Positions 7,768 through 63,984 of a stretch of DNA of 64,000 bases are shown one piece after another. Source of the DNA: a bacterium (GTDB lineage: Bacteria > Actinomycetota > Acidimicrobiia > Spongiisociales > UBA5794); the NCBI GenBank assembly GCA_024226255.1, contig JAAELU010000141.1:23093-87092 (forward strand). Direction: 5' to 3'. Below the pieces are notes generated by a model. It made no database searches, was not told the DNA's origin, and saw nothing but the letters and a program-made list of their open reading frames with translations. A program made the translations under genes and the position numbers. Each line of letters starts with the position of its first letter. Position 1 is the stretch's first letter.

Positions 7768-9639
7768 TTGGGGGCTCTCGTGAGACGCTTGGTCGTGTCG
7801 TTCTTGCTGGCAACGACCGCGCTCATCGTCATCCCGGTGGCGGCCTTCGCCGACGCTCCGACGTGCCAGGGAGTGCCCGCAACCATCGTGGGTACCGACG
7901 GTGATGACAAGATCTACGGAACCGACGGGGATGACGTGATTGTCGGGCTCGGCGGCGACGACGAACTCTCGGGCAGGGGCGGCGATGACCTCATCTGCGG
8001 GGGCTCGGGAGACGACGAGCTCAAAGGCGGGAGCGGCAACGACACAATCAAGGGCGGCGGTGGCAGTGACGCCATCTACGGCCACGATGGCGACGACACC
8101 TTGCTCGGCGGATCTGGCCGAGACCATGTCACAGGCAACCAAGGCAGCGATGTGGTCAGCGGCAATCGATCTCGCGACACCCTCCAAGGAGGAGCCGGTG
8201 ACGACACGATGCGCGGCGGACCCGGCGCCGACCTGATCGGGGGCGGCTACCTCGACTCGGCAGCTTCCGGCAACGACCTCATATACGGCGGCTCCGGCCC
8301 CGACACGATCTGGGGAGGCGAAGGCAATGCCATCGTCTTCGGCGGCCGGGGTGAAGACCGTGTCTATGGCGAAACCGGCGACGACACCCTGAATGGCGGT
8401 CCGCATGACGATCTGCTCGTTGGAGGCGCCGGCATCGATGCGGCGGTGGGCGGCGGAGGCTCTGACGACTGCTCCGCCGAGACCATCGATTGCGAGAACT
8501 CGATTCCATCACTGGGCAACGTCGAGATCACCCTCGGTCATGAGTTCGTAACCCTCAAGGGCAGAGCCCACCATCACGACCCGCTCGGTGACATCGAGTA
8601 CGCCCTGAAGCGTGAAGAGTCTGGGCTGTGGGTGCAGCCCGACGGATCGATGGCCGCAGCCAAGGTGTGGCTGCCCACGACGCTCGACCCGCTCACGCAG
8701 TGGGATACCGATTGGTCGGCGTCGATCGAGCTGCGCCGGGGCCACTATCGGCTTTCGGTGCGGGCTATGGATGCCGACGGAGACAGGGACTACCTGCGAC
8801 CCCGGCCAACGTTCAGTGTCCGCCGATTCGGAATGGAGATTGGCCTCATCAAGGGAGGCACCGACCTCTTCACATACTTCGACATAGAAGTGCTCCCGGA
8901 TGGAACCCGGTTGGGCCGCGGCGACCGCGATGGGCGAGGCAATCCCATCCCAGCGAACGGATTTGGGCAGACCATCCGAATTCCCGGCGCCGCTCACGAC
9001 GGCTTCGACTCCATCGACTTTGTCGAAGTCGCTGTGCAGGACACCACCACTGGACTGTGGCTGCAGACTGACGGCGGATTCGGCTCGGCCGAGGCACGCC
9101 ACCCAGCCGATTGCCCGCAGTGTGACGAGGGCGGCTCGACCTCCTGGCTATTCGACGCCGAACTAGCCGATGGCGACTACCACTTGGTGGCCTACGGGAC
9201 GCGGTTCTTCCCCGCCACTCCGGACGTGGCCCAGATTGAATGGGACTTCGCCGCCGACGGCACAATCGACGAGATGCCGACGGTGACCGTCGACCAGCCG
9301 ATGGGGTCGGTGTTCCCGCCGGACGCCATCGCGTTCAGTGGAACCGCCACCGACAATTTCGGCGTCAACCGGGTCAGAGTCTCGATCCGCGACCGAGCCA
9401 CGGGCTTGTGGCTGCAGTCGCTCCACCTGCCGCTCAGGTGGGACGACTACAAACGCGCGTTCCCTGTTGAGTTGGCATCGCCTGACGAACCGATCACCAA
9501 CTGGTCAGTCGATGCGCTACGTGGTCGGCCGCTGGAGCTGCCACCGGGCAGCTACAACCTATCGGTTGCCGTGCACGACGGGGCGATGCATCGCGGCTCG
9601 ATCAACCCATGGCTCACCTTTGAAGTAGCAGATCCGTAG
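7768..9639 (+). CDS. secreted RTX-family calcium-binding repeat protein with three C-terminal repeats of about 100 aa of unknown fold
   Basis: Signal peptide LVVSFLLATTALIVIPVAAFADAP. More than 15 GGxGxDxL/I nonapeptide repeats (aa 40-230). C-terminal repeats are marked by GLW(V/L)Q.DG motifs. The start is TTG 7768 or GTG 7780. Confidence 0.8.
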   Translation: MGALVRRLVVSFLLATTALIVIPVAAFADAPTCQGVPATIVGTDGDDKIYGTDGDDVIVGLGGDDELSGRGGDDLICGGSGDDELKGGSGNDTIKGGGGSDAIYGHDGDDTLLGGSGRDHVTGNQGSDVVSGNRSRDTLQGGAGDDTMRGGPGADLIGGGYLDSAASGNDLIYGGSGPDTIWGGEGNAIVFGGRGEDRVYGETGDDTLNGGPHDDLLVGGAGIDAAVGGGGSDDCSAETIDCENSIPSLGNVEITLGHEFVTLKGRAHHHDPLGDIEYALKREESGLWVQPDGSMAAAKVWLPTTLDPLTQWDTDWSASIELRRGHYRLSVRAMDADGDRDYLRPRPTFSVRRFGMEIGLIKGGTDLFTYFDIEVLPDGTRLGRGDRDGRGNPIPANGFGQTIRIPGAAHDGFDSIDFVEVAVQDTTTGLWLQTDGGFGSAEARHPADCPQCDEGGSTSWLFDAELADGDYHLVAYGTRFFPATPDVAQIEWDFAADGTIDEMPTVTVDQPMGSVFPPDAIAFSGTATDNFGVNRVRVSIRDRATGLWLQSLHLPLRWDDYKRAFPVELASPDEPITNWSVDALRGRPLELPPGSYNLSVAVHDGAMHRGSINPWLTFEVADP

Positions 9640-20609: not shown

Positions 20610-23513
20610 CTACTGCGCCTGCATTGCCCGCCACACCCGCTCGGGGGTGAATGGCAGGTTGTTGATGCGGGTTCCTGTGGCATCGGCAATCGCATTGCGG
20701 ATTGCCGGAGCAACTCCGTCCTTGGGGATCTCGGCAATGGCCTTGGCGCCGAAGGGGCCGCTCTTTTCCATTGTCTGCACCAGATAGGTGTCGATATGGG
20801 GCATTTCATCGGCGCGGTAGATCCAATAGGGGCCGAACCGTGCGTTGACCATCTTGCCGCTCTCGTCGTACGCCATTTCCTCGCAGTGGCCGTAGCCGAG
20901 AGCTTGGACCATGCCGCCCTCGACCTGTCCGGCGGCCGTCACAGGATTGATTGGCACACCACAGTCGACGGCCATGATCAGGGACTTCACGGTCACCTGG
21001 CCGGTGTCGATGTCGACTTCGACCTCGGCGAATTGAGCCGCGTACGGCGGGGGTGACTCCGAGCACACGTACGAGGCAACGCCCATGATCTGGTGTTGGT
21101 CTTGGCGGTGCAACGAGTGGAGAGCGATCTCTTCGAGCGTTACTGAGCGGCCGTCAACGGCCCACGCTCGCTTGTCGGCAAGCTCGATGGAACCTGGGTT
21201 CTCATCGAGCATCAGAGCGGCCCGGTCCACGATCAGCTTGCGAGCCTCTTCGGCGGCACGTTTGACGGCCATGCCCGATATGTAGGTCGTAGAGGACGCG
21301 TAGGCACCGACGTCGAACGGGGTCATGTCCGTATCGGCGGCGTACACGAGGATGTCCACGAGAGGCACCCCGAGTACCTCTGCGGCGATCTGCCCTAGGA
21401 CGGTGTCGGCTCCCGTGCCCAGGTCGGTGGCGCCCATCAAGAGATTGAACGATCCGTCGTCGTTGATCTTGATGCTGGCGGCACCCATGTCGAGACCGGG
21501 GATGGCGCTGCCGTGCATGCACATAGCGAAGCCCAAGCCCCGCCGGATGTTGGGCCGATCTGCGGGCGCCTTCCACTCAGGATCGAGTCGACGCTTCCAG
21601 CCGATCGCCCGCTCGCCCTGGGCAACACACTCTTCGAGGCCGCTCGACGTGATGACCGGGACGAAGCCGTCGTCTGGGGCGTCGCCTTCACCGAGCTGCG
21701 GGGCGATATCGATCGGGTCGCCGACTCCGGCCCAGTTGAGCCTGCGGAACTCGATCGACTCCATGCCGAGTTCGGCGGCGATGTCCTCCATGTGGGCTTC
21801 GAGAGCGAAGAGGGCCTGGGGCGCGCCGTAGCCACGGTATGCCCCCGGCACTGGAATGTTGGTGTAGGCGACCTTGCAGTCGAACCGCTTGTTGGGGCAG
21901 TTGTATGAGCTGAGGCCGCGCAGGCCGCTAACAGTCTGCACGGTCAGGCCATGGGTTCCATATGCGCCCGTGTTGGCCACGACCTGCATTTCCTGGGCGA
22001 CCAGCCTGCCGAGAGGATCGACGCCTGTTCGGTATGTGATCGTCTGCGGGTGCCGGGTTCGGCTGGAGACGAACTCCTCCTCACGGTTGAGCTCGAGTCG
22101 AACCGGCTGTCCCGTGGCCATCGTGAGATGTCCCACGACGTCTTCGATCAGCATCTCCTGTTTGGCGCCGAAGCCGCCGCCAATGCGCGGCTTGACGACG
22201 CGGATCTGCCTGACGGGCAGGCCGAGAAGCGGCGCCACCATCCGGCGGACGTGGAACGGGACTTGGGTCGAAGTCCGAATGACCATCCGTTCGTCGCTGT
22301 CCCAATATGCAATGGCGATGTGAGGTTCGATGGGGGTTTGTTGCACCTGGTGCACTCGAAAAGTCTGCTCGAACACTCGGCTGGCGCTCGCCAGTCCCTC
22401 CTCCACGTCGCCGTTGTGGGCATAGATGTGGTGCACGATGTTCCGGCCCGCATCGTGGGCACCGTCCATCTCATCCTCGTCGTGGATGACCGGGGCGCCA
22501 TCGGCGATGGCCTCGACCTCGTCGAATACCGCGGGAAGCACCTCGTATTCGACCTCGATGAGAGCGACCGCTTCCTCGGCGATCTCAATGGTGTCGGCAG
22601 CAACAGCGGCCACCCGGTCGCCAACGTGCCGGACTTTGCTGTCGAAGCTCACCTGGTCATACGGTTGAGGGTTCGGGAAAGTCTGTCCACCGGACGCATA
22701 CCGGACGCGAGCAACGTTCTCGTGATGAAGTACGGCTCTAACACCGGGCAAGGCTTGTGCCTTGGAGTCGTCGATGCTGACGATCCGGGCGTGAGCATGG
22801 GGGCTATACAACATCTTTGCGTAGAGCATCTGGCGCAATTCGATGTCATCGACGAACGCCGGATTGCCCTTCGCCAGCTTCACTGAGTCCACCTTGAACT
22901 CCGGCTTGCCGACCACAGCGGTGTCAGGCACCTCGGGGTTGGGGACGACCTTGGGGAACACCCCGGGGATCCCACCTGGGTCGGCGACACCCTCACCGCC
23001 CATGTCGTATGTGAGAGGTGGAACGATGGCCGTTTCGATGTCCGGGACCGATTCGCCACGAAGTGCGGCAGCGGCGCGTTGCACAGCCATCACCGGGCGC
23101 AGATAGCCGGTCTCGCGGTCGAGAATGCCGGCGAGCATGTCGCGGATCTCGGCCTCGCTCGGATCGGGATTGTGTTCCAGCAAAGCCTTGGTACCCAGGA
23201 TCGTTGCCGGTGTCGAGTAGCCAGACTGGATGGCACCGGTGGCCACAAACGCTTCCTGGATGGGATGCATGGTCATCTTGGGAGCCAGTGCCTCGATCGT
23301 TTCGATCGAGTGCCCTTCAGCCTGGGCGGCCAGCATCACCTGGGTGGAGACAAGCCGGCCGTCGACCAGCACGGCATCAGAACCGGTCTCGCCGGTTTCA
23401 GAACCGAAACGGACGCTGTAGTAACCCTCGCGGCGCAGCACGGTCAGCAAGGACTCGTGGGGCTCGCAGCTGACGAGGCGTCGATCGCCGTTGATTTCGA
23501 GCGTCACTTTCAT
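20610..23513 (-). CDS. xanthine dehydrogenase/aldehyde oxidase family molybdopterin-binding subunit with an N-terminal cysteine-less 2x[2Fe-2S]-homologous domain
   Basis: Moco-domain motifs RIGGGFGAKQEM, AYRGYGAPQALFALE and the GAKAIAEIPKDGVAPAIRNAIADATG catalytic-Glu region. The N-terminal 160 aa align to CoxS/XdhC-type ferredoxin, but every Cys is replaced: GSETGETGSDAV for GCxxGxCGAC, QSGYSTPA for QCGFCTPG, ILDRETGY for NLCRCTGY. Confidence 0.8.
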   Translation of the reverse strand: MKVTLEINGDRRLVSCEPHESLLTVLRREGYYSVRFGSETGETGSDAVLVDGRLVSTQVMLAAQAEGHSIETIEALAPKMTMHPIQEAFVATGAIQSGYSTPATILGTKALLEHNPDPSEAEIRDMLAGILDRETGYLRPVMAVQRAAAALRGESVPDIETAIVPPLTYDMGGEGVADPGGIPGVFPKVVPNPEVPDTAVVGKPEFKVDSVKLAKGNPAFVDDIELRQMLYAKMLYSPHAHARIVSIDDSKAQALPGVRAVLHHENVARVRYASGGQTFPNPQPYDQVSFDSKVRHVGDRVAAVAADTIEIAEEAVALIEVEYEVLPAVFDEVEAIADGAPVIHDEDEMDGAHDAGRNIVHHIYAHNGDVEEGLASASRVFEQTFRVHQVQQTPIEPHIAIAYWDSDERMVIRTSTQVPFHVRRMVAPLLGLPVRQIRVVKPRIGGGFGAKQEMLIEDVVGHLTMATGQPVRLELNREEEFVSSRTRHPQTITYRTGVDPLGRLVAQEMQVVANTGAYGTHGLTVQTVSGLRGLSSYNCPNKRFDCKVAYTNIPVPGAYRGYGAPQALFALEAHMEDIAAELGMESIEFRRLNWAGVGDPIDIAPQLGEGDAPDDGFVPVITSSGLEECVAQGERAIGWKRRLDPEWKAPADRPNIRRGLGFAMCMHGSAIPGLDMGAASIKINDDGSFNLLMGATDLGTGADTVLGQIAAEVLGVPLVDILVYAADTDMTPFDVGAYASSTTYISGMAVKRAAEEARKLIVDRAALMLDENPGSIELADKRAWAVDGRSVTLEEIALHSLHRQDQHQIMGVASYVCSESPPPYAAQFAEVEVDIDTGQVTVKSLIMAVDCGVPINPVTAAGQVEGGMVQALGYGHCEEMAYDESGKMVNARFGPYWIYRADEMPHIDTYLVQTMEKSGPFGAKAIAEIPKDGVAPAIRNAIADATGTRINNLPFTPERVWRAMQAQ

Positions 23514-24305: not shown

Positions 24306-24545
24306 CTACTGACGTGCGCTCCCGGAACGGAGCGCTGTGGCCATTCGTTTGCGAGCGATCAAAAACCACCATGCAGCACCAACGCCACCGGTCAGCAAGA
24401 CAACAAGGGCGATCGCCGCCTTGGATGGTCCTACGGATAGGAAGTCTGCTGCCGGCTTGCGAGCGATGTCGACGAACGCCAGCACCGGCAGAACGATCCC
24501 AAGCACGATCAGCCCGCCAAGCAAGAGCAACAAACCGCTGTCCAT
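24306..24545 (-). CDS. small two-TM membrane protein
   Basis: A 79-aa protein with two hydrophobic helices (LLLLLGGLIVLGIVLPVLAF, AIALVVLLTGGVGAAWWFLIA). Confidence 0.5.
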   Translation of the reverse strand: MDSGLLLLLGGLIVLGIVLPVLAFVDIARKPAADFLSVGPSKAAIALVVLLTGGVGAAWWFLIARKRMATALRSGSARQ

Positions 24546-26317: not shown

Positions 26318-28549
26318 ATGTTGGGCACGCCGCACCGGCCTACCGCACTTGCGGTGCTGACGAGTGGTGGAGACGCCGCCGGTATGAATGCTGCGGTTCG
26401 CGCCGTGGTGCGTTCAGGCCTTGACAAGGGTCTTGATGTTTTTGCCGTCAACGAGGGGTTTCGAGGGCTGGTCGAGGGCTCAATTCACGAAGTCGATTCG
26501 AGCGATGTCGGCGGGATTCTCCATCAGGGGGGGACTGTCCTCGGGACGGCACGGTGCGATGAATTCCGTGAACGCGATGGCCGACGTCGGGCTGCTCATC
26601 ATCTCATTGAGCGTGGCATCGACGCTCTGGTCGTCATCGGTGGAGATGGCAGCCTGACCGGTGCCAATGTGTTTCGGGAGGAGTGGCCTGAGCTACTCGA
26701 CGAACTGGTCGCGGCGGGTTCGATCGATCAGAGCCTGGCGGACGCTCATCGCAGACTGACTCTGGTCGGCCTGGTCGGCTCGATCGACAATGACATGTTC
26801 GGAACCGATATGACGATCGGGTCGGACACGGCCTTGCATCGGATAACTGAGGCCGTGGACGCGATTCACAGCACAGCGTCGAGTCACCAGCGGGCGTTTG
26901 TCATCGAGGTCATGGGTCGCAACTGTGGCTATCTGGCGCTCATGAGCGCAGTATCTGCGGGCGCCAATTGGGTCTTGATTCCCGAGCACCCGCCGGCAGG
27001 CGGCGACTGGGAGGAGGCCATGTGCGATGCGCTCCATGCCGGGCGGGAAATTGGACGCCGTCTCAACCTCGTCATAGTTGCCGAAGGAGCTCGCGACCGA
27101 AGCGGTAACCCGATTACCGCAGAGCAAGTCTCGAACGTACTCGCTGACCGGCTGAACGAGGACGTCCGAGTCACGAGCCTGGGGCATGTGCAGCGCGGGG
27201 GAGCGCCAAGCGCGTTCGATCGCTACCTGAGCACTGTCTTGGGTTACGCCGCGGTCGAACAAGTGGTGACTGCGCCGGGTGGCGATCCACAACTCATCGG
27301 CATCAGGGGCCACCAGATCACAAGTTCGTCCCTTGTTGACTGTGTCAACAAGACCCACGCCCTCGCCGATCTGATCAAGTCGAAGGACTACGAGTCGGCT
27401 ATGGACATGAGGGGTGGAAGCTTCAAGGAGTCGTTCCGGATGCTGCGAACGATGACCCGGGCTCATCCCCATGACCCCGTGCCCGGGCAGCGCCGCTTGC
27501 GCTTGGGGATCCTCCACGGCGGAGGGCCGGCCCCAGGGATGAACACCGCCGTCCGGGTCGCAGTTCGGTCTGGAATCGAGAGTGGCCACACAATGCTCGG
27601 AATCCGCAATGGATTTGAAGGTCTCGTCACCGGCGACATCGAAGAGATGGATTGGATGAGCGTCAACGCCTGGGTCGGCCGCGGCGGTGCCGAGCTAGGC
27701 ACCAACCGCTTCATGCCAGGCGAGGCCGACTTCGAACGTATCGCTGATCAGATCGCTGCCCACAAGATCGATGGGCTGCTGATGATCGGTGGATGGGCCG
27801 GCTACCAGGCTGCATTTGACATCCACTCGCGCAGAGATCAGTTACCAGCCTTGGCTCTTCCGATCGTGTGCCTCCCCGCATCAATCAACAACGATCTTCC
27901 CGGCTCTGAGCTGAGCGTCGGTGCCGACACCGCGCTCAACAGCATCGTGAAGGATGTCGACAAGATCAAACAATCCGCGGTGGCCAGCGGGAGGTGCTTC
28001 GTCGTTGAAGTAATGGGCCACGACTGTGGGTACCTTGCGCTGATGAGCGGCCTCGCCACCGGTGCCGAGCGTGTCTACCTCCCAGAGGAAGGGATCTGGC
28101 TAAGCGATCTGACGACGGACGTTGCCAATCTTGTCACGGGATTCGAGGGCGGCAAACGACTCGGGCTCGTGATCCGCAGCGAGCGGGCCGACGAGGTGTA
28201 CACGACGAGTTTCATCGAAGCCTTATTCGAACGCGAGGGGGGCGACCTGTTCGATGTGCGCGGCGCGATTCTCGGGCACGTGCAGCAGGGCGGAAACCCA
28301 TCGCCGTTTGATCGGATCCAGGCGACGCGCCTGGCATCGAAGAGTGTCGAGGAGCTCATTGAGCAGGCCGAGTCCGACGTACCCGTCAGTTCGTTCATCG
28401 GGTTGAAGCGTGGCAAGCCCAGGCTTACCCGCTTGGCCGAGTTCCCGGACCTCATGGAGTCAGACGTTCATCGCCCGCGCGAGCAGGGTTGGCTTGACCT
28501 GCGGCCCATCGCCAAGGTCATGGCACGTCCCAGCTTTCCGGAGTCATAG
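26318..28549 (+). CDS. pfk: tandem-duplicated 6-phosphofructokinase (two PFK domains fused, 743 aa)
   Basis: GGAGGAG RBS 7 nt before ATG. The N-half has AVLTSGGDAAGMNAAVRAVV plus GSIDNDMFGTDMTIG; the C-half has LGILHGGGPAPGMNTAVRVAV plus ASINNDLPGSELSVG. Confidence 0.85.
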   Translation: MLGTPHRPTALAVLTSGGDAAGMNAAVRAVVRSGLDKGLDVFAVNEGFRGLVEGSIHEVDSSDVGGILHQGGTVLGTARCDEFRERDGRRRAAHHLIERGIDALVVIGGDGSLTGANVFREEWPELLDELVAAGSIDQSLADAHRRLTLVGLVGSIDNDMFGTDMTIGSDTALHRITEAVDAIHSTASSHQRAFVIEVMGRNCGYLALMSAVSAGANWVLIPEHPPAGGDWEEAMCDALHAGREIGRRLNLVIVAEGARDRSGNPITAEQVSNVLADRLNEDVRVTSLGHVQRGGAPSAFDRYLSTVLGYAAVEQVVTAPGGDPQLIGIRGHQITSSSLVDCVNKTHALADLIKSKDYESAMDMRGGSFKESFRMLRTMTRAHPHDPVPGQRRLRLGILHGGGPAPGMNTAVRVAVRSGIESGHTMLGIRNGFEGLVTGDIEEMDWMSVNAWVGRGGAELGTNRFMPGEADFERIADQIAAHKIDGLLMIGGWAGYQAAFDIHSRRDQLPALALPIVCLPASINNDLPGSELSVGADTALNSIVKDVDKIKQSAVASGRCFVVEVMGHDCGYLALMSGLATGAERVYLPEEGIWLSDLTTDVANLVTGFEGGKRLGLVIRSERADEVYTTSFIEALFEREGGDLFDVRGAILGHVQQGGNPSPFDRIQATRLASKSVEELIEQAESDVPVSSFIGLKRGKPRLTRLAEFPDLMESDVHRPREQGWLDLRPIAKVMARPSFPES

Positions 28550-45261: not shown

Positions 45262-45437
45262 AGGTGGCAGTTGGCGGGACGTCGTTGCCAACTAGATGGG
45301 CGATACGACTGATCTGGAGGCAGACCAACACGAGCCCGACCGGCCTGGACCTGCCCGCAGGTTCCTCAAACGACGCCGCGGCAAGCTGCCGAGTGTCGGG
45401 TGGGGCTAGGCTCGGATACGGCGACTGGAGGGTTCTG

Positions 45438-47330
45438 GTGAACGACGTATTCGTCTGCCACGCATCTGAAGATCGGTCTTTCGCCGAGGCGGCTGTGGCG
45501 GCGCTCGAGGCCCGCGGGATTCGGTGCTGGATCGCCCCGCGAGACGTTCCTCCCGGTTCGGACTATGCGGGGGCCATCCTGTCGGGGATCAGCACTAGCC
45601 GAGTATTGCTCCTCATCTTCTCCCACTGGTCGAACGAGTCGCCGCACGTGCCCCGGGAAGTGGAGCGGGCAGTCAATCGGAAAATGCCAATAGTCCCGTT
45701 CCGTTTGGATGAGGTCGCTCCGAGCGGCCCCCTCGAGTATTTCATCAGCGGTGCCCAATGGTTTGATGCCGCCTCGGGCAGCCCCGATGACCACCTCCCG
45801 GCTCTGGTCGACGCAGTCAGGCGGCTGGTATCCCCCGCAGCCACGCCAGCCCCCGTGGCCGAGCGGGAGGACTTCAGCCGCGAAGTGCGCGAGCAACTGG
45901 AGACGCTGGTCTTGCGGTACGGCACCGAGTTGGCCGGTGACGCGCGCCGGCTGCAAGCGGTGCTCCGTGACATGGTTGGAGAACATCCAGCCGAGATTTC
46001 GGCGCTGGTCACTGCAGCGGAGGAAGGGGTGCCGGAGATGTTGCTGCACTCCTCGGACCCAGGAGCCTCGGCCACCCGGGAACGCCTGGCCCGCCGCTTG
46101 AAGGAAAGGCGTGCGCTCGGCATGGAGGCGGCGGAGTGGGCGGTAGCGTCGTGGGCACGTGCCCTCCGGATCCCACCGTCCCCTTCTCAGCCGCCGCTGG
46201 ACCTCGGGGAGACGAAGCCGGCCTCCGCCGCCGAACCAGAGAAGACCCGTCCCGTGGAGATAGACGAGAGTCTCACGCCCGCCGTGTCATCGGGCCAACC
46301 AGCGGCTCCGCCCGTGCCGCCGGCGAAAGAGGTCCCCCGAGCAAGTGCCGAGCCGGCGCAGGCGGCACCGTCAACCCCGCCGCAACCCCGGGTAGCGCAA
46401 TCGCCGCCGCGTCCCGACGGGCGTCCCGCCTGGATCTATGCGCTGCTTGCCGTGATCGGCGTCGCGCTCGTTGTTGGAGCCGTCGTTCTGTTCTCCGGGG
46501 ATGAGGCGACCGGTCCGGCAGCGACCGATGTCACCACCACCACCGGAGTCACGACCAGCGGGCTCGGCACTACGCCGAGCACGCTCACTCCGACCGCACT
46601 ATCGGCTGACTCCGAACGAATCGTTGCCCGTGGGCAGGTACGGATCGGCGTTCGGGACAACCCCTTGCCGCCCCTCACAACCTTCGAGGCGGATCTCTCG
46701 CAGGAGGTTGTCTCGCGTCTGTTCGGCGACATCGCCGTGGAGTTGGTGCCGGTCGCCGTCCTGGACCGCTTCGCCGTTCTCGAGGCTGGTGATGTCGACT
46801 TCCTGATCCGTTTGACGACCCACACCACGAGCCGGGAGGAGCTGGCGTCGTTCACCAGCCCATACTTCCTCGATGGATTGGCGTTCGCATTTGGGCCGGA
46901 CCGCGGGATCTCCTCGATCAGCGGTCTGGCCGGTCTGACGATCGGAGTGTTTGACGGAACAAGCACGGAACTGGAGGTCCGGCAGGCCTTGGAGGGGAAT
47001 GGAGTGGGTGCAACGATCGTCGGATTCGACGACACCGACGCCGTATCCAATGCTCTCGTAGCCGGCGAAGTCGACGCCATTGGCGTGTATTGGGCGCAGG
47101 CTCTCAACTACGTAGAGACCCTCGGTGTCGACGCATTCCTCTACACGCTGCTAGAGCCGCTCACAGTCGTGGTGTCACTTGAGAACCCCGGCTTGCGCGA
47201 CGATCTCGACCGGGTCTTGCGGGAAATGGTGGCCGACGGGACCTGGCGACAACTGTATGAACTCCGGTTCGTGGAACCGCCGCCCTGGAGCGAGGATGAG
47301 ATGTCGACCTTCCCGCCGGTCGACCGATGA
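45438..47330 (+). CDS. TIR-domain single-pass membrane protein with a C-terminal extracytoplasmic solute-binding (SBP_bac_3-like) domain
   Basis: GGAGGG-N5-GTG start. TIR_2 pattern VFVCHASEDRSFAEAAVAALEARGIRCWIAPRDVPPGSDYAGAILSGISTSRVLLLIFSHWSNESPHVPREVERAV. A helical middle region, a Pro-rich linker, TM WIYALLAVIGVALVVGAVVLF, then an SBP_bac_3-like domain (FLIRLTTHTTSREELASFTSPYF, LTIGVFDGTSTE, VAGEVDAIGVY). Confidence 0.75.
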   Translation: MNDVFVCHASEDRSFAEAAVAALEARGIRCWIAPRDVPPGSDYAGAILSGISTSRVLLLIFSHWSNESPHVPREVERAVNRKMPIVPFRLDEVAPSGPLEYFISGAQWFDAASGSPDDHLPALVDAVRRLVSPAATPAPVAEREDFSREVREQLETLVLRYGTELAGDARRLQAVLRDMVGEHPAEISALVTAAEEGVPEMLLHSSDPGASATRERLARRLKERRALGMEAAEWAVASWARALRIPPSPSQPPLDLGETKPASAAEPEKTRPVEIDESLTPAVSSGQPAAPPVPPAKEVPRASAEPAQAAPSTPPQPRVAQSPPRPDGRPAWIYALLAVIGVALVVGAVVLFSGDEATGPAATDVTTTTGVTTSGLGTTPSTLTPTALSADSERIVARGQVRIGVRDNPLPPLTTFEADLSQEVVSRLFGDIAVELVPVAVLDRFAVLEAGDVDFLIRLTTHTTSREELASFTSPYFLDGLAFAFGPDRGISSISGLAGLTIGVFDGTSTELEVRQALEGNGVGATIVGFDDTDAVSNALVAGEVDAIGVYWAQALNYVETLGVDAFLYTLLEPLTVVVSLENPGLRDDLDRVLREMVADGTWRQLYELRFVEPPPWSEDEMSTFPPVDR

Positions 47331-51174: not shown

Positions 51175-52494
51175 ATGACGAGCGACATCGAAGTCCCGAT
51201 CACTGACCGGGCCAAGGAGGAGCTGGAGAAGCGGTTCAACCGGTTGGTGGGTGTATCGGCAACGAACCTGTGCACACACTGCGGATGGTGCATCGACTCA
51301 TGTCACGTCTACCTGGCCACGGGCGATGTTCGTCTGTCCCCGGTCGGCAAGGCGGACCTCATTCGGCGCCATTACAAGCGCTCGCACGACTGGATGTCCA
51401 AGGTGTTTCCGCGTTGGACCGGGGCGAAATCGGAGATCACCGAGAACGAGTTCGACGACTGGCTCGAGGCCGCCTTCCAGGCCTGCACACTCTGTGAGCG
51501 TTGTGTCGTCAACTGCCCAATGGGTGTCGAGACGCCGCAGCTGCTGGCGGCAGCGCGCGGCACTCTGACGGCCATTGGCAAGGCTCCCGAGATCCTGGAT
51601 CAGCTCGCCAACGCTGCGATTGCGCGGGAGGAATTCCTGGACAGCTTCTCTGAGTACTTCCTCGACCAGATCACCGTGCTCGAGGCTGAAGTCCGGGAGA
51701 AGCTGGACGACCCGACGGCGCGGATCCCGGTGAATGAACCGGCGGAGATTCTCTACGTGCCGCTGTCCGGGGCGCACACGATCGTCCCCCAGGCGATCAT
51801 CTTCAACGCGGTTGGTGCCTCATGGTCGCTGTCAATGTTCGAAGCCTCCAACTATGCGATGTTCCTCGGTGATACGGCCCGGGCCAAGAAGATTGCGATG
51901 CGAGTCATCAATGAGGCTGAGCGCCTCGGGGTGAAGGAACTCGTCATCTCCGAGTGTGGCCATGCATATACAGCCTTCCGTTGGGAGGCGCCTAAGTGGT
52001 TCGGAGGCCCGCTGCCCTTCAAGGTGCGCAGCATCGTTGAGGTGCTCGATGAGTACGTGGCCGAGGGCCGACTGCCGATAGATCCGAGCATCAACTCGGA
52101 GCCACTCACCTATCACGACCCGTGCAACCTGGGTCGCAAGGGTGGGGTCTTTGACGAACCGCGCCGGGTAATCGAGGCGGCGTCGACAGACTTTCGTGAG
52201 ATGACGCCCACCAAGGCCCAGAACTTCTGTTGCGGTGGAGGTGGTGGCCTCGTGGCTCAGCTCGACTGGCGCGACCAGCGGATCGCCTTCGGCGGCCCCA
52301 AAGCAGACCAGATTGCCGAGACCGGAGCCACCCGGGTCATCACGTCGTGTGACAACTGCCGCCACCAGATAAACGAGCTAGGCGACAGCTACGGCCTCGG
52401 TTTGTCCGAGGTTGTGTCTGTATCCGAGCTGCTCGTGGATGCACTCCTCGCAGCTCGTCAGCCGGTACAACAACTTGCCAAGGAGGAAATGTGA
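51175..52494 (+). CDS. HdrD/DsrK/GlpC-like Fe-S protein (2x[4Fe-4S] plus two CCG domains)
   Basis: CTHCGWCIDSCHV and CTLCERCVVNCPM ferredoxin motifs; Cys-rich CCG motifs YHDPCNLGRKGG and QNFCCGGGGG. Confidence 0.7.
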   Translation: MTSDIEVPITDRAKEELEKRFNRLVGVSATNLCTHCGWCIDSCHVYLATGDVRLSPVGKADLIRRHYKRSHDWMSKVFPRWTGAKSEITENEFDDWLEAAFQACTLCERCVVNCPMGVETPQLLAAARGTLTAIGKAPEILDQLANAAIAREEFLDSFSEYFLDQITVLEAEVREKLDDPTARIPVNEPAEILYVPLSGAHTIVPQAIIFNAVGASWSLSMFEASNYAMFLGDTARAKKIAMRVINEAERLGVKELVISECGHAYTAFRWEAPKWFGGPLPFKVRSIVEVLDEYVAEGRLPIDPSINSEPLTYHDPCNLGRKGGVFDEPRRVIEAASTDFREMTPTKAQNFCCGGGGGLVAQLDWRDQRIAFGGPKADQIAETGATRVITSCDNCRHQINELGDSYGLGLSEVVSVSELLVDALLAARQPVQQLAKEEM

Positions 52495-53009
52495 GCGATG
52501 ACGACGGTCGCAGGAAGATGGCGTTGATCGCCTCTCAGGGAACCCTCGATTGGGCCTATCCGCCCTACATCCTGGCGTCCACAGGGGCCGCGATGGATTG
52601 GGATGTGCGGATCTTCCACACCTTCTACGGCCTGACACTTCTCAAGAAGAAGCTCAAGGCGAAGGTAGCGCCATACGGCAATCCTGCGATGCCCATGAAG
52701 ATGCCCTTCGGACCGCAGGGGTTCCAGTCGATCGAATGGCCGATCCCCAACATCGTCCAGACCAACGTTCCGGGCTTCAATCGCCTGGCGACGGTGCTGA
52801 TGAAGCGCACTTTCAAGAAGAAGGGCGTCCAGTCGGTCGAAGCCATGCGCGACATGTCCCTGGAATTAGGTGCCACCCTCATTGGGTGTCAGATGACGAT
52901 GGACGTATTCGGCTTTGATCTCGAGGAATTCATTCCCGGAGTCGAGATCGCCGGTGCGGCCGCCTTCCTTGCGTTCGCCGCCGACGCCGACATTCAGTTG
53001 TTCGTCTAG
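52491..53009 (+). CDS. DsrE/DsrF-like family protein
   Basis: LIASQGTLDWAYPPYILASTGAAMDWDVRIFHTFYGLTLL; ATGA-type overlap with the HdrD-like gene. Confidence 0.5.
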   Translation: MSDDDGRRKMALIASQGTLDWAYPPYILASTGAAMDWDVRIFHTFYGLTLLKKKLKAKVAPYGNPAMPMKMPFGPQGFQSIEWPIPNIVQTNVPGFNRLATVLMKRTFKKKGVQSVEAMRDMSLELGATLIGCQMTMDVFGFDLEEFIPGVEIAGAAAFLAFAADADIQLFV

Positions 53010-60000: not shown

Positions 60001-62328
60001 CTAGCGCGCCACCATCACAGTGAATTCTGCGAAGCCGGAGCCGGATGAGTTCTCGCGGCCTTCGAGGAGGAGCCGGACCGAACGGCCCGCGACTTTGGGC
60101 AGGACGAGGACGTCGGGATCGGGCGTGCCCGGGAGTTCGACGAACTCCTCGAATACGATCTCCCCGTCGGCGTCGATCACCTGGATCGTGACGGCCGCGA
60201 AGCCGTGGTTGGTACGGCGGCTGACTGTCGAGTTCTGAGCATTGGAGACCATGACTACCTCTCCGATGTAGTCGTCTTGGGTACCGGTCCACTGGAAGGT
60301 GGAGTAGGTCCCGTCGCCGCTCGATGAGATCCACGATGTTGTTATGTCGCCGTCAGTGGCCTTGCTGGCTGCGAACGAACCGCACAGGCGCGACGATGCA
60401 GTCACGGTGCCCTCATCGGTGGCGTCATGGTCGGCGACGACCACCGTGGTGGTAGTCGTGCTGGTCGTGGTGGAGGTGCTGGTGGTAGTCGGGGCGGTGG
60501 TGGTCGTAGTGGATGAGGTCGTGCTCGTCGTCGCGGCAGTTATGTCATCGGAGTCGGCCGAGGTGTCCGAGCCGATGGTCCTGACGAATGCCAGTCCAGT
60601 AGCGATGTCCTGCAACACGAACTGAGTGAGCGGCTCCTCGCACGGTTCGAGTTCGACTATGGCTGCCGGGTCGAAGGCGGGCCAGGCGATACCGACGAAC
60701 GTCGGGCTCGGCACCGGTACCGGTAGTGTGAGCGGACTGCCGGACGCGCACCGTACGCGGGGCTCTGCGGTCGCTCCTACCAGGACCGCGGTTCCCTGCT
60801 CTAGCAGAGCCTGCCGGGAAACCACGCGGCCGTTGTCGAGAACATGTGTGGTGACTCGCACGTCCCGGGTCAGGTGCATCGGCGTCAGGCCGGCGACGAA
60901 GGCGGCGATATCTTGGAGAGCGATGCCCTGCGCATCAGCCCAGACTTGCGAGAGCGCCGTGTCCCCATTCAGCTCGTCGAGGAGAATGCTGCTGTTGCAA
61001 CCGGCGCTCCCACGGTCGGCTGCATAGATCAGCTCATCCGAGCCCTTCACCAATGCTACCTCGGAGGCGCCCTCTGAGTGGAGGGTGGTTGTCGGGCCTT
61101 CCATCGCGTGGGTTTCTCCCATCGCCAGCAGGCTGGCCGTGAATACGTGCTCGATCGCGCCCGCCGCTTCCAGGTAGACGTTGTCGGAGGCAAAGGACAC
61201 AGCATCCTTCGAGCCCTGATTGGCAATCCACGCCGCGACGCCACCTACCAGAACGGCTACAAAAGCAGCACCACCGACGAATGCGGCAACCTTGTTGCGC
61301 GTGCCGCCGTTCTTCCCCCGGCTCTGCTGAATGGGCGTCGGTGAGGGTTGGGGCCTTTCCTCTGCCCTGACGGTGTCCGGGAGTGGTGGTTGTGGCGGTG
61401 GTGTTTCGCCGGTGGCGGCCACGGTGTCCTGGGGCGGTGGTTGAGGTGGTGGTTGTGGTTGGACTGGCGGTGTTTCGCCGGTGGCGGCCACAGTCTCCTG
61501 GAGTGGTGGTTGTGGTTCTGGTTCGACTGGTGGTGTTTCGCCGGTGGCGGCCACGGTGTCCGGAAGTTCATCGGCGGCGGCTGGGGGCGGCTGCGGCGCG
61601 GCCGCTTGCTCCATCCCAAGCGCATAGACCCAAGCACCAACCGCCCAGCGTGAGGCATCCTCGGCCAGCGCCCGGTTCTGTTGCAGGCGACGGACGAGAC
61701 GTTCTGTGAGCTCCGGGGTCAGCCCTTGCGACGATTGACGGAGGGCGGCACCGACCCCCTCCTCGGCACCTGCAAAGAGTGCCGCCACCTCGGCGCGGTG
61801 GTCTCCGGCGACGTCCCGCAGCAGAGCTCGCACCCGGCGGGGATCGTCGGTGAGCTCGGGACCGTATCGGTCGACCAGATCGCGCAGGGTTTCCCTCGTA
61901 GCCTGACGGGCATCCTCTCCGGCTTCCCCGTAGATCCGCAAGCGAATGATCTTTGCCAGCTCGACAACATGCTCCTCGGTTGTGAGGTAGGTGGCGTCGA
62001 GCCATTGGGCACTGCTGATGAAGTACTCGAGCGATGCCGACGGCTCGACGTGTTCGATGCGGAAGGGGATGATGTCAATGCCCCGGGACACAGCTCGCTC
62101 AACCTCGCGACTTACATGCGGCGACGCGTTCGAGAAGTTGGAAAACACCAGGACGAGGGCCTTGGCGCCTGAAATACCGGCCACGATCGCCTGGGCGTAG
62201 TCGGCCCCCGGCATGACATCGCGCGGCGCCACCCAGCAGGTGATTCCGCCTTGCTCGAGGCCGGCCACCACCGCATCGGCGATCGCTCGATCCTCCGAGG
62301 CATGGCAGACGAATATCTCACGCGCCAC
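60001..62328 (-). CDS. TIR-domain single-pass membrane protein (paralog of 45438-47330) with a different ectodomain: unknown domain, Thr-rich linker and a discoidin/F5-8-type-C-like C-terminal domain
   Basis: MAREIFVCHASEDRAIADAVVAGLEQGGITCWVAPRDVMPGADYAQAIVAGISGAKALVLVFSNFSNASPHVSREVERAV TIR_2 pattern. The middle helical region is homologous to the first TIR protein. PPQP repeats; TM VAAFVGGAAFVAVLVGGVAAWIA; TTSTTSSTTTTT linker; a C-terminal beta-sandwich-like region ...DGDITTSWISSSGDG... Confidence 0.75.
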   Translation of the reverse strand: MAREIFVCHASEDRAIADAVVAGLEQGGITCWVAPRDVMPGADYAQAIVAGISGAKALVLVFSNFSNASPHVSREVERAVSRGIDIIPFRIEHVEPSASLEYFISSAQWLDATYLTTEEHVVELAKIIRLRIYGEAGEDARQATRETLRDLVDRYGPELTDDPRRVRALLRDVAGDHRAEVAALFAGAEEGVGAALRQSSQGLTPELTERLVRRLQQNRALAEDASRWAVGAWVYALGMEQAAAPQPPPAAADELPDTVAATGETPPVEPEPQPPLQETVAATGETPPVQPQPPPQPPPQDTVAATGETPPPQPPLPDTVRAEERPQPSPTPIQQSRGKNGGTRNKVAAFVGGAAFVAVLVGGVAAWIANQGSKDAVSFASDNVYLEAAGAIEHVFTASLLAMGETHAMEGPTTTLHSEGASEVALVKGSDELIYAADRGSAGCNSSILLDELNGDTALSQVWADAQGIALQDIAAFVAGLTPMHLTRDVRVTTHVLDNGRVVSRQALLEQGTAVLVGATAEPRVRCASGSPLTLPVPVPSPTFVGIAWPAFDPAAIVELEPCEEPLTQFVLQDIATGLAFVRTIGSDTSADSDDITAATTSTTSSTTTTTAPTTTSTSTTTSTTTTTVVVADHDATDEGTVTASSRLCGSFAASKATDGDITTSWISSSGDGTYSTFQWTGTQDDYIGEVVMVSNAQNSTVSRRTNHGFAAVTIQVIDADGEIVFEEFVELPGTPDPDVLVLPKVAGRSVRLLLEGRENSSGSGFAEFTVMVAR

Positions 62329-62402: not shown

Positions 62403-63413
62403 TCAAGCTCGGGCACGCGAGACCCGCCAACCCGTGTGCTCCTCTGAAACGGCTGCCTCGGCAGTGTCCACAAACGTTGCCCACTCGTCCTCGTCCTCGA
62501 TCGGCTCCAGGATCGATTCCATTGCCAGGAGCTCGTGGGCAGTGTTCGCGTATGCACGGGCCTGCCGGTCGTATCGCCTGACCCCTGTCCACATCGTGAT
62601 CAATGCCGCCACGAAGCCGGCAACTCCGAGGATGTTGACACCGAAGGAGCCCAAGCCCTGGAGCAGGCCGAAGAGAATCGCCACCGCGCTGGCGAGCACG
62701 AACATCGCGTCCCAGAAACGAGCCAGGTGTTCGTTGGTACGGGCGCGGTCTGAGTACCACGATGCCTGATCGTCCACGCGGCCGGTTGCGTACGCCGCCT
62801 TACGCTGCTCTAGCCCGGTATGGCGTAACTGCCGCATCGCCGGTGTGATCTGGTAGTGAGCGCCACGGGTGGGGGGCGTATGCAGGCTGCCGAGTTCGGC
62901 GAGCAGCTCCCACAGGCGGGCGTTGAAGAGTTGATCCGCCTCCTTGTCGGTGCCTTCTTGCAGAGCGAACGGAACACCGCCTACGGAGTATCGCCACGAC
63001 AGACTCTTGACCGATTCGGCCGCCAGCCGCGCGTCGTACCACGATGCTTCCAGGCTGGACAGCCGTGAATAGACCCGCAACGCCGCGACGGCGAGGAAGG
63101 CTCCTACCCCCACAATGGCAATCTGGTCGACCCCGGTGGCGGCAGCCGCCGTACCTGAGGTGACGCCGATCAGCAGCAGGACGACCTGCGCCTTGATGAC
63201 GCCGAAGAACATGGTGCGTGAGCTGATCGATTCCTTGTCCGCGGCCTGGAAGAGGGCGGGCAAGTCGGAATGCTCCAGCACCATCTCATGGGCTCGTGTG
63301 GGATCCTCCAATCGAACCGTGCCTCCCGCCGCTTTCGTTCCCGTCCACGCTAGTGCTCCGATGGCGGCGGTCGTCGCGGAACTGCGTTTTGGGCTACCGG
63401 CGCTTGAGGACAT
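62403..63413 (-). CDS. tandem 2TM SLATT-like (SLATT_1 plus SLATT_3 / DUF4231-like) membrane protein
   Basis: Two repeats of a TM hairpin plus amphipathic helix with W..RY signatures: FFGVIKAQVVLLLIGV...IAIVGVGAFLAVAALRVYSRLSSLEASWYDARLAAESVKSLSWRY, then FWDAMFVLASAVAILFGLL...ILGVAGFVAALITMWTGVRRYDRQARAYANTAHEL. The start is uncertain (20-nt overlap with the cyclase gene). Confidence 0.5.
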   Translation of the reverse strand: MSSSAGSPKRSSATTAAIGALAWTGTKAAGGTVRLEDPTRAHEMVLEHSDLPALFQAADKESISSRTMFFGVIKAQVVLLLIGVTSGTAAAATGVDQIAIVGVGAFLAVAALRVYSRLSSLEASWYDARLAAESVKSLSWRYSVGGVPFALQEGTDKEADQLFNARLWELLAELGSLHTPPTRGAHYQITPAMRQLRHTGLEQRKAAYATGRVDDQASWYSDRARTNEHLARFWDAMFVLASAVAILFGLLQGLGSFGVNILGVAGFVAALITMWTGVRRYDRQARAYANTAHELLAMESILEPIEDEDEWATFVDTAEAAVSEEHTGWRVSRARA

Positions 63414-63984
63414 ACATGGGGAAGGCGCCGTAGTCCTTGGCGGTGTCGATATGACCTACGTACTCGGGAATCATGCCGGGAACCGGGTCGAGTGCCAAGA
63501 GCGCGGCGGACGAAGCTGTCATGTAGACCTCGCCGGGCGGCGTCCGCGGCTCGATGCGGGCGGTTCGGATCACATGGGTGCCGAAGAACGAAGGCTCCCG
63601 CCTGATCGGGTCCGTTCCCGCATACACGGGCCCGGCGTGTACACCTATGCGCAATCCCATTTCGGGCAAGTCCAACCTGTTGAGGTCGAGTGCGCCGAAT
63701 GTCCGCTGCATCGCCAGCGCCCCGCTGGTGGCTGCGCTGACCGTCCGATATACGAGATAGAGCCCGTCTCCCCAGCTGTTGCGATAGAGCACGTCGTCAC
63801 CAGACGCGTCGATGGAGTCTGCAAGCGCTCCCATCACCGACTCAAAGAAGGTCGGTATCTGTCGCTCATCCAGAGTGCTGAAACCGTGAAAATCGGCAAA
63901 TACCATCGCTCGGAGGTCCCGGGGTGGACCCGCAGAATCCGCCACACGATTGGCCGGGATGTCCGGGTGGCTGCAGGGAACCAC
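63394..63984 (-). CDS. stand-alone class III nucleotidyl cyclase (adenylate/guanylate-cyclase catalytic domain); the 5' end may extend beyond the window
   Basis: CHD motifs MVFADFHGFSTL (metal Asp), SWGDGLYLVY (second Asp), LRIGVHAGPVYAG and GTHVIRTARIE (transition-state Arg). The canonical base-specifying Lys and Asn positions are substituted. The frame is open upstream of GTG 63984 to the sequence end. Confidence 0.7.
   Translation of the reverse strand: MVPCSHPDIPANRVADSAGPPRDLRAMVFADFHGFSTLDERQIPTFFESVMGALADSIDASGDDVLYRNSWGDGLYLVYRTVSAATSGALAMQRTFGALDLNRLDLPEMGLRIGVHAGPVYAGTDPIRREPSFFGTHVIRTARIEPRTPPGEVYMTASSAALLALDPVPGMIPEYVGHIDTAKDYGAFPMYVLKRR

Follow-up and report, generated by a model that had tools for sequence, protein, structure and literature searches.

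Xanthine oxidase-family enzymes carry electrons between a molybdenum cofactor (Moco) and either flavin adenine dinucleotide (FAD) or an external partner, and to our knowledge all members with an understood electron path use two [2Fe-2S] clusters to do so. Here we describe a molybdenum hydroxylase operon in a window of 64 kb (the whole stretch of DNA that was analysed, from contig JAAELU010000141.1 of the Acidimicrobiia assembly GCA_024226255.1). The operon keeps a flavin subunit and an intact Mo site while the connecting clusters, as judged from the sequence of the Mo subunit, cannot exist, and the same holds for XdhD of Escherichia coli.

Both the protein family and its function in E. coli, urate reduction, are already known. 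Li et al. (2025; PMC12507026) found that tagged E. coli XdhD co-purifies with a ~30 kDa protein taken as YgfM, detected 2,8-dioxopurine from urate and NADH by liquid chromatography-mass spectrometry with XdhD-YgfM, and observed that an xdhD deletion accumulates urate. The assay was an end-point measurement at 10 µM enzyme and 1 mM substrates with no rates given, and the words "cysteine" and "2Fe-2S" occur nowhere in that paper (PMC12507026). The E. coli locus holds ygfK-ssnA-ygfM-xdhD together with xdhABC, hyuA, ygeWXY, yqeABC, and mocA.

The aldehyde oxidoreductase MOP of Desulfovibrio gigas (1sij/1vlb) resembles the enzyme studied here, hereafter the query, in that an N-terminal two-ferredoxin module is fused to the Moco domains in one chain (sequence E 2e-81); MOP, however, holds both of its [2Fe-2S] clusters and lacks an FAD subunit, whereas in the query the cysteines are absent and an FAD subunit is present. 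The best Protein Data Bank (PDB) sequence match for the Moco part of the query is Thauera aromatica 4-hydroxybenzoyl-CoA reductase (HCR; 1rm6, E 1.2e-103), which also runs a reductive dehydroxylation. HCR carries two [2Fe-2S] clusters on a gamma subunit of its own and, within the FAD subunit, an additional [4Fe-4S] cluster, which makes for more relay centres, not fewer. Clostridium sporogenes 2,8-dioxopurine dehydrogenase (DOPDH, XdhAC), for which the same reaction as that of XdhD is proposed, is selenium-dependent (it needs SelD) and associated with YqeB and YqeC; it is described with Fe-S-binding domains and without an FAD domain, did not depend on NAD(H), and was tested for activity by means of an artificial donor (bioRxiv 10.1101/2025.04.24.650524). 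Its cofactor complement is the opposite of that of the query. At some Clostridioides difficile Mo-hydroxylase loci, genes for the FeS or FAD subunit are missing (Johnstone and Self, PMC11448449).

A two-cluster ferredoxin domain without ligand cysteines

The original prediction for this locus, made from the DNA alone, took the N-terminus of the Mo subunit to be homologous to two-cluster ferredoxin domains, and the alignments bear this out. Residues 1-151 align without a gap to 4zoh_C, the [2Fe-2S] subunit of a Sulfolobus-type enzyme (E 1.2e-29), and equally gaplessly to 8uem_C, 3hrd_D, and 1ffu_A; CoxS/CutS, the N-terminal part of D. gigas MOP, and the small subunits of nicotinate dehydrogenase and quinoline oxidoreductase gave alignments of equal quality. 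Pfam Fer2_2 (PF01799) scored 65.7 bits against a cutoff of 30.3. PF00111 (Fer2) was not detected in the N-terminus of the query by the Pfam scan, whereas it is detected in an eight-Cys sister clade described below. Homology thus shows that the first ~150 residues of the Mo subunit derive from the xanthine oxidase family's two-[2Fe-2S] module.

The eight ligand columns were set by a MAFFT alignment in which the E. coli XdhC Fe-S subunit, with Cys at all eight, served as control. At these columns the query has S38, T43, D46, and Q58 (site 1) and S97, S100, D132, and E134 (site 2), residues that were checked at the codon level, and thus Cys at 0/8. The predicted substitution of all eight ligands therefore stands, except that the fourth column falls on Q58 and not on T57. 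In the Fer2_2 region, QSGYSTPA takes the place of QCGxCTPG and LDRETGY that of LCRCTGY. The sole Cys within residues 1-160, C16, lies outside the ligand columns. Because no ligand column holds a Cys, the N-terminal domain cannot bind the two [2Fe-2S] clusters.

Whether relatives share this state had been left to comparison in the original prediction: they do. Ligand columns were Cys-less in 120/120 of the closest database homologs (75-100% identity to the query). In a survey limited to one genome per species, which yielded 355 relatives, the best 80 of the 355 were examined further; these are metagenome-assembled genomes (MAGs) of Acidimicrobiia and Chloroflexota at 68-87% identity, called species-level orthologs here, and all counts out of 80 refer to them. 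Every one is Cys-less at the ligand columns (80/80), where S or A, T, A, D, or S, and D, E, or Q are found at site 1 and S, S or A, D, and E at site 2. S97 and D132 are kept in 80/80 and E134 in 79/80, and position 100 is Ala in about 10% of orthologs.

Mean pairwise identity among the orthologs is 71% in the N-terminal domain versus 78% in the Moco part, and 52 of 150 N-terminal positions reach a conservation of 97% or more, with the TGETG loop, QSGY, and LDRETGY among them. An AlphaFold2 (AF2) model of the Mo subunit (pLDDT 80.8, pTM 0.84) has a confidently folded N-terminal domain, with pLDDT of about 87-94 except around the former ligand loops. The best PDB fold match of the model was D. 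gigas MOP (1sij, TMq 0.73). The PDB holds 45 sequence relatives of the Mo subunit at E <= 1e-20, and no XdhD structure is among the entries matched by sequence or fold search. Conservation and model together indicate a conserved, folded domain that is not decaying, which supports the structural role offered as one option in the original prediction. Since all 80 orthologs are Cys-less and the domain is conserved, local degeneration or a pseudogene is excluded.

The same state is found in E. coli K-12 XdhD (YgfN, b2881), which is 37% identical to the query over its full length. Its ligand columns read D, A, D, S and S, N, S, D, and there is no Cys in its first 160 residues. Because E. coli XdhD has the same Cys-less domain, the alignment indicates that the trait belongs to the family and reaches beyond the query locus.

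No separate Fe-S subunit had been predicted, and none was found: a six-frame hidden Markov model search of the 64 kb with a two-[2Fe-2S]-domain profile matched only the Mo-subunit open reading frame (ORF) and revealed no frameshifted gene, and Pfam scans of 50 of the 56 window ORFs (from a simple longest-ORF screen) returned no further Fer2 or Fer2_2 protein. Two substitutes within the complex were considered and rejected. A compensating Cys cluster would have to come from the Mo subunit, as the FAD subunit has no Cys at all; of the seven Cys that the Mo subunit carries outside its N-terminus, only C546, C629, and C877 are invariant, and the eight-Cys sister clade has these too. An aromatic hopping chain was also rejected, as the domain has no new invariant Tyr or Trp relative to canonical E. 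coli XdhC (which has Y137, and Phe at 99). Tyr and Trp potentials are, moreover, far too high for a low-potential electron chain.

Catalytic part, operon, and likely substrate

The Moco part was expected to be intact, and its domain scores agree. MoCoBD_1 (PF02738), MoCoBD_2 (PF20256), and the hammerhead domain (PF01315) scored 264.6, 242.4, and 103.9 bits, all far above their cutoffs. GGGFGAK occupies residues 445-451 and AYRGYGAPQ residues 558-566, and E928 (20730-20732), within FGAKAIAEI, aligns with the catalytic Glu of the HCR, nicotinate dehydrogenase, and CODH chains. GGGFG(A/V/S)K and FGAKA(I/V)AEI occur in 80/80 orthologs, so that the Moco motifs and the catalytic Glu are invariant. 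A further Glu, E609 (21687-21689), lies in an LGEG motif that 77/80 orthologs share and aligns with E606 of E. coli XdhD, which has been proposed to orient urate (PMC12507026). The (L/I)GEG insertion is also present in the sister clade and the E. coli clade; E. coli XdhA and the remaining outgroups are without it.

Table 1. Features of the molybdenum hydroxylase operon (window coordinates; all on the minus strand)
Feature	Position	Strand	Basis
YgfM-like FAD-binding medium subunit, 249 aa	23510..24259	-	PF00941 FAD_binding_5, 70.6 bits
Mo-binding large subunit with fused pseudo-[2Fe-2S] N-terminus, 967 aa	20610..23513	-	TIGR03313 best NCBIfam model
Residues 1-75, plant-type ferredoxin subdomain relic (cluster site near FAD)	23289..23513	-	gapless alignment
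Site-1 ligand codons	S38 23400-23402; T43 23385-23387; D46 23376-23378; Q58 23340-23342	-	
Residues 76-150, Fer2_2 four-helix subdomain relic (cluster site near Moco)	23064..23288	-	PF01799, 65.7 bits
Site-2 ligand codons	S97 23223-23225; S100 23214-23216; D132 23118-23120; E134 23112-23114	-	
a/b-hammerhead and two Moco-binding domains, residues 201-967	20613..22913	-	Pfam
XdhC/CoxI-family Moco insertion chaperone, 266 aa	19809..20609	-	PF02625, 86 bits; PF13478, 122 bits
YqeB-type selenium-dependent molybdenum hydroxylase maturation protein, 264 aa	19015..19809	-	TIGR03309, 305.6 (cutoff 220)
YqeC-type selenium cofactor biosynthesis protein, ~232 aa	18320..19018	-	TIGR03172, 161 (cutoff 73.05); PF19842, 133.7 bits

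The operon runs in the order FAD subunit, Mo subunit, XdhC-type chaperone, YqeB, and YqeC, five translationally coupled genes (Table 1). Co-transcription of the FAD subunit, as originally predicted, is supported by an ATGA overlap of its gene with the Mo gene start. The FAD gene is taken to begin at ATG 24259, which is preceded by the ribosome-binding site GGAAGGA (the mechanical ORF starts at TTG 24274). The chaperone gene has a GTG start immediately after the Mo gene stop, the YqeB gene overlaps it by one base, and the YqeC gene, read from ATG 19018 (mechanical ORF from 19096), forms an ATGA overlap with the YqeB stop. The medium subunit is 26% identical to E. coli YgfM over its full length, and TIGR03312, its best NCBIfam model, scored 68.6 bits, below the cutoff of 241.5. 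Its motifs GGGT and TVGGT suggest flavin binding, and these motifs, as (A/G)GGT and T(V/I)GG, are kept in 66 of 74 partner subunits of the orthologs. Just upstream of the FAD gene lies a 79-aa ORF with two predicted hydrophobic helices (24306-24545, minus strand; MDSGLLLLLGGLIVLGIVLPVLAF...).

YqeB and YqeC are marker genes of selenium-dependent molybdenum hydroxylases (PMC2276186; PMC11448449). Both markers are present in the query operon with scores above their curated cutoffs, and the query enzyme is probably selenium-dependent. Six-frame profile searches and Pfam scans found no homolog of SelD, YgfK, SsnA, HyuA, YgeW/X/Y, YqeA, or MocA within the 64-kb window. A search of the window with Rfam gave four tRNAs only, and thus no riboswitch or other RNA clue to the substrate, and a promoter and terminator scan gave nothing above shuffled expectation.

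Of the hallmarks of the xanthine oxidase family, the query has the Moco domains, the catalytic Glu and GGGFG loop, and an FAD subunit, but not the eight-Cys two-cluster module. From the XdhD/YgfM type it has the fused Cys-less ferredoxin-like module, a short (~255 aa) FAD partner encoded immediately upstream, and the (L/I)GEG Glu; it does not reach the NCBIfam cutoffs (TIGR03313, the XdhD/YgfN model and the best for the Mo subunit, gave 703.1 bits against 1101.9) and does not form with E. coli XdhD a clade free of Cys-containing enzymes. Nor does it belong to the MOP type, as NF045668 scored 426.8 bits, below its cutoff of 1100. Based on ortholog gene context and the shared (L/I)GEG insertion, we assign the query enzyme to an XdhD-like superclade.

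Like the pair XdhD/YgfM (b2881/b2880), the query consists of a ~255-aa FAD gene overlapping the gene of a ~960-aa fused pseudo-FeS and Moco subunit, with Cys at 0/8 ligand columns, the LGEG Glu, and associated YqeB, YqeC, and XdhC-type maturation genes; some of its orthologs, like xdhD, adjoin ygfK, ssnA, hyuA-like, ygeW-like, and xdhABC-like genes. Unlike XdhD/YgfM, both query subunits fall below their NCBIfam cutoffs, identity is only 37%, and the query forms a separate clade. The replacement residues differ as well (S, T, D, Q and S, S, D, E versus D, A, D, S and S, N, S, D), the XdhC-type protein and YqeB are separate in the query but one fused 541-aa protein in E. coli, the maturation genes of the query lie within the same operon, unlike those of E. 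coli, and the pathway genes lie outside the query window.

Over the 80 ortholog loci, the module is conserved to the extent of 75 FAD, 80 Mo, 68 XdhC-type, 66 YqeB, and 56 YqeC genes. A gene for 8-oxoguanine deaminase, an enzyme that makes urate, is found at 22/80 loci (e.g., L057:7862-9889, NF006055 675 bits versus a cutoff of 532), divergently upstream of the module and often with a complete canonical xanthine dehydrogenase (XDH; pucD/pucE/FAD) and MocA. Also present are an SsnA-like amidohydrolase (16/80), an additional, canonical XDH of the pucD/pucE type that has an Fe-S subunit of its own (up to 16/80), MocA (13/80), D-hydantoinase (10/80), YgfK (9/80; in L068, where it adjoins SsnA, TIGR03315 gave 918.6 bits versus a cutoff of 835.3), SelD adjoining the module (6/80; TIGR00476 362 and 338 bits), and a YgeW-like carbamoyltransferase (5/80). 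These neighbours correspond to the E. coli set ygfK-ssnA-ygfM-xdhD, xdhABC, and hyuA. Urate and 2,8-dioxopurine appear to be the most likely substrate pair of the query enzyme, a proposal that we hold with slightly better than even confidence; because the model scores are below cutoff and identity to E. coli XdhD is 37%, it draws on the context of relatives and on one motif.

Loss of cluster ligands and flavin motifs, and possible routes of electrons to molybdenum

Wider fused relatives were compared by way of one representative per 50%-identity cluster. All eight Cys are retained in most of them, but not in the E. coli clade (XdhD, P0135, P0176), the query clade, and P0124. In a neighbour-joining (NJ) tree (370 gap-free Moco-domain columns, 100 bootstraps, with weak deep nodes), the query clade is sister to an eight-Cys Chloroflexota clade represented by P0121 (bootstrap 92), and the E. 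coli XdhD clade (support 100) lies elsewhere in the same 100%-supported superclade, beside the eight-Cys P0132 (support 64). For the N-terminal domain alone, identity with the query amounts to 48.7% in P0121, 39% in canonical E. coli XdhC, and only 32% in E. coli XdhD. P0121 itself has Cys at 8/8 ligand columns and a detectable PF00111; in a sample of its clade, 115/120 have Cys at correctly scored ligand columns, and the other five are without the first motif in the alignment. Because the query clade groups with an eight-Cys clade, apart from E. coli XdhD, at least two independent losses are indicated, and the most parsimonious reading of these sequences is that the Fe-S ligands were lost completely at least twice and partly once. 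A single ancestral loss shared with E. coli XdhD was considered and rejected, as it goes against both the tree and the N-terminal identities, with the caveat that the tree was built by NJ only, from 370 columns, and is weak at its deep nodes.

The P0121 clade (~115 relatives) is the closest to the query outside its own clade, at 55-58% identity, and shares the fused architecture, the LGEG motif, and an overlapping medium-subunit gene. Its medium subunit, however, is without the first ~65 residues and both GG flavin motifs, such that PF03450 alone is detected, and YqeB and YqeC are not adjacent in the two loci of this clade that were examined. Examples of these medium subunits are encoded at L088:9253-10011 and L089:9348-10004, and in P0308, P0311, P0317, and P0336 (1165-1270 aa) the medium subunit is fused to the Mo protein. 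It resembles a pseudo-flavoprotein, the reciprocal of the pseudo-ferredoxin of the query.

P0124 (L090:1479-4310) appears to be an intermediate, in which the first-cluster ligands are lost (D, G, D, G) and QCGYCTPA and LCRCTGY are kept; its partner (L090:670-1482) is an FAD_binding_5 subunit with TVAG as second motif. Flavin motifs are also missing among the Cys-less orthologs. In four Anaerolineae/Chloroflexota MAGs (L072, L075, L078, and L080) the partner subunit lacks both FAD motifs, and one further Cys-less locus (L067) has no medium subunit; the Moco motifs are intact in all five. An SsnA-like gene directly follows the module in L075, L078, and L080.

The reading we prefer, with a probability of roughly 60%, is that the query acts in purine catabolism as the catalytic subunit of a molybdenum hydroxylase of the XdhD/YgfM type, and that its N-terminus is a folded, cofactor-free scaffold. 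This scaffold would pack against the Moco domains and dock the FAD subunit, with D132 and E134 replacing the Cys of the CxC motif, which adjoin the pterin in canonical XDH and MOP structures. Chemistry would take place at a Mo-MCD centre (E928, E609) matured by the co-transcribed XdhC-type protein, YqeB, and YqeC, and the interconversion of urate and 2,8-dioxopurine would be the most likely reaction. By analogy with the E. coli homolog, NAD(P)H may pass reducing equivalents to the FAD in the medium subunit, and these may reach Mo without a relay, either by slow long-range transfer or by another route; these are the weakest steps of the proposal. A bypass of Fe-S had been the third option of the original prediction.

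Several points weigh against it. In bovine XDH, the distances are 14.7 Å from Mo to FeS I, 12.4 Å from FeS I to FeS II, and 7.8 Å from FeS II to the flavin. From these values, the FAD-pterin gap without a relay, if the arrangement is canonical, can be estimated roughly at ~20-25 Å, for which a Moser-Dutton calculation that assumes almost no driving force and a reorganisation energy of about 0.7 eV yields an approximate rate of ~0.01-0.6 per second, poor for a catabolic enzyme. A rate in this range would still give detectable product in the published end-point assay. Catalytic transfer from NADH to Mo is, moreover, unproven by the E. coli assay, because it was an end-point measurement at 10 µM enzyme without rates. 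The four Anaerolineae orthologs without FAD motifs and the one locus without a medium subunit have intact Moco sites, which argues that the FAD route is not obligatory. Finally, the TIGR03313 score (703 bits) is below cutoff, the identity of 37% to E. coli XdhD is similar to that to XdhA-type models, and the 64-kb window itself contains no pathway gene and no SelD.

An alternative that we consider unlikely is that the internal wire is dispensable because Mo would be restored by chemistry at its own active site, or by an outside partner that docks close to Moco. In a ping-pong version, one purine or another donor would be hydroxylated as Mo(VI) goes to Mo(IV), and urate would then be dehydroxylated, a net transhydroxylation in which FAD is vestigial or has another role. 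Mo-site-only redox cycles have precedent in general: xanthine oxidase catalyses xanthine-driven nitrite reduction in this way, and a transhydroxylase exists in the dimethyl sulfoxide reductase family. The pattern of losses fits such a cycle, as no fewer than two clades have independently lost the Fe-S ligands and a third has lost half of them, some Cys-less orthologs also lost the FAD motifs (L072, L075, L078, L080) or the whole FAD subunit (L067), and the eight-Cys sister clade lost the FAD-binding half of its medium subunit; in addition, orthologs often adjoin a canonical XDH, which would act as source or sink of the partner purine. However, the FAD motifs kept in 66/74 partner subunits imply selection on flavin binding, and no second substrate has been identified. 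E. coli XdhD-YgfM also made product with NADH as sole added reductant, and the behaviour of the E. coli mutant is consistent with a simple urate reductase (PMC12507026).

Taken to the XdhD superclade as a whole, it is doubtful, if conceivable, that Moco is the only obligatory redox centre and that the wire of FAD, FeS II, FeS I, and Mo is decaying piecemeal. The reason would be either a purine transhydroxylase with two substrates at Mo(VI)/Mo(IV) or an undiscovered electron partner. If this were true, the textbook cluster requirement would not apply to the superclade, the E. coli enzyme included.

It is very improbable that site 2 (S97, S100, D132, E134) binds another metal or an unconventional cluster that relays electrons or stabilises the pterin. 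Non-Cys ligation had been among the options of the original prediction; it is excluded at site 1, because many orthologs have Ala at ligand positions 38 and 46, and is weakly conceivable at site 2 (S, S or A, D, E). There, S97 and D132 are invariant and E134 is kept in 79/80, QSGY and LDRETGY are at least 97% conserved, and hard oxygen-donor ligands could hold Mg, Ca, or Fe. Against such a site stand the Ala at position 100 in about 10% of orthologs and the S, N, S or I, and D of the E. coli clade at the same columns, which leave no common site-2 ligand set. We know of no [2Fe-2S] cluster without any Cys or His ligand, and, with Ala at two site-1 ligand positions in many members, the gap to FAD would remain anyway.

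Even less probable is a catalytically dead or non-redox paralog with a purine-binding, regulatory, or purely structural role. Loss of redox cofactors is a common sign of a pseudoenzyme, and the rest of the pathway is absent from the window; yet the catalytic Glu, GGGFG, AYRGYGAPQ, and LGEG were counted as invariant in 80 orthologs (LGEG strictly in 77/80), three dedicated Moco/Se maturation genes are translationally coupled, and the E. coli homolog, likewise Cys-less, shows activity and is required in vivo for the degradation of urate (PMC12507026). Sequencing errors, a frameshift, or a missed canonical Fe-S subunit gene in the vicinity can be dismissed, as nothing was found in favour of any of them, the six-frame search revealed no other Fe-S-type domain in the 64 kb, the ORF is uninterrupted, an identical protein (P0001) exists in a public assembly, and the same state recurs in 80 independent genomes.

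Annotation, significance, and other features of the window

RefSeq names E. coli XdhD (L001 25317-28187) "molybdopterin-binding subunit and Fe-S binding subunit", NCBIfam TIGR03313 likewise describes Fe-S binding, and the JGI name for the whole metagenomic family is "putative selenate reductase molybdopterin-binding subunit". Because E. coli XdhD is without ligand Cys, the current Fe-S annotation is contradicted, and thousands of metagenomic proteins annotated as Fe-S proteins or "selenate reductase subunits" need correction. The missing Cys of XdhD, the convergence of two clades, and the loss of FAD binding in the sister clade are unmentioned in the searchable full-text literature; remarks in subscription-only sources, UniProt, or EcoCyc are possible. 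Since 2025, E. coli XdhD has been the entry enzyme of urate degradation by gut bacteria, which is relevant to gout, and its mechanism has an unexplained electron step. The independent losses provide natural controls in the form of eight-, four-, and zero-Cys enzymes with or without FAD motifs.

Elsewhere in the window, an HdrD-like protein (4Fe-4S dicluster, CCG domain) followed by a DsrE/DsrF-like protein is encoded at 51175-53009 (plus strand). No clear Fe-S protein other than the former occurs in the window, and it has no relation to the operon, which lies ~27 kb away on the other strand. A 743-aa tandem-duplicated phosphofructokinase (26318-28549, plus strand) scored 936.5 bits with the eukaryote-type model TIGR02478 (cutoff 708.4) and is unusual for an Acidimicrobiia genome. 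Genes at 45264-47330 (plus strand) and at 60001-62328, 62403-63413, and 63394-63984 (all minus strand) have the appearance of a defence or signalling cluster: two encode TIR-domain proteins, of which one carries a fused solute-binding domain and the other a fused DUF6777, and beside them are a SLATT_3/SLATT_1 effector protein with two transmembrane segments and a nucleotide cyclase-like gene. A tRNA cluster for Gly(GCC), Cys(GCA), and Val(GAC) at 7050-7348 (plus strand) is followed by a gene for a 623-aa RTX calcium-binding repeat protein (7768-9639, plus strand).

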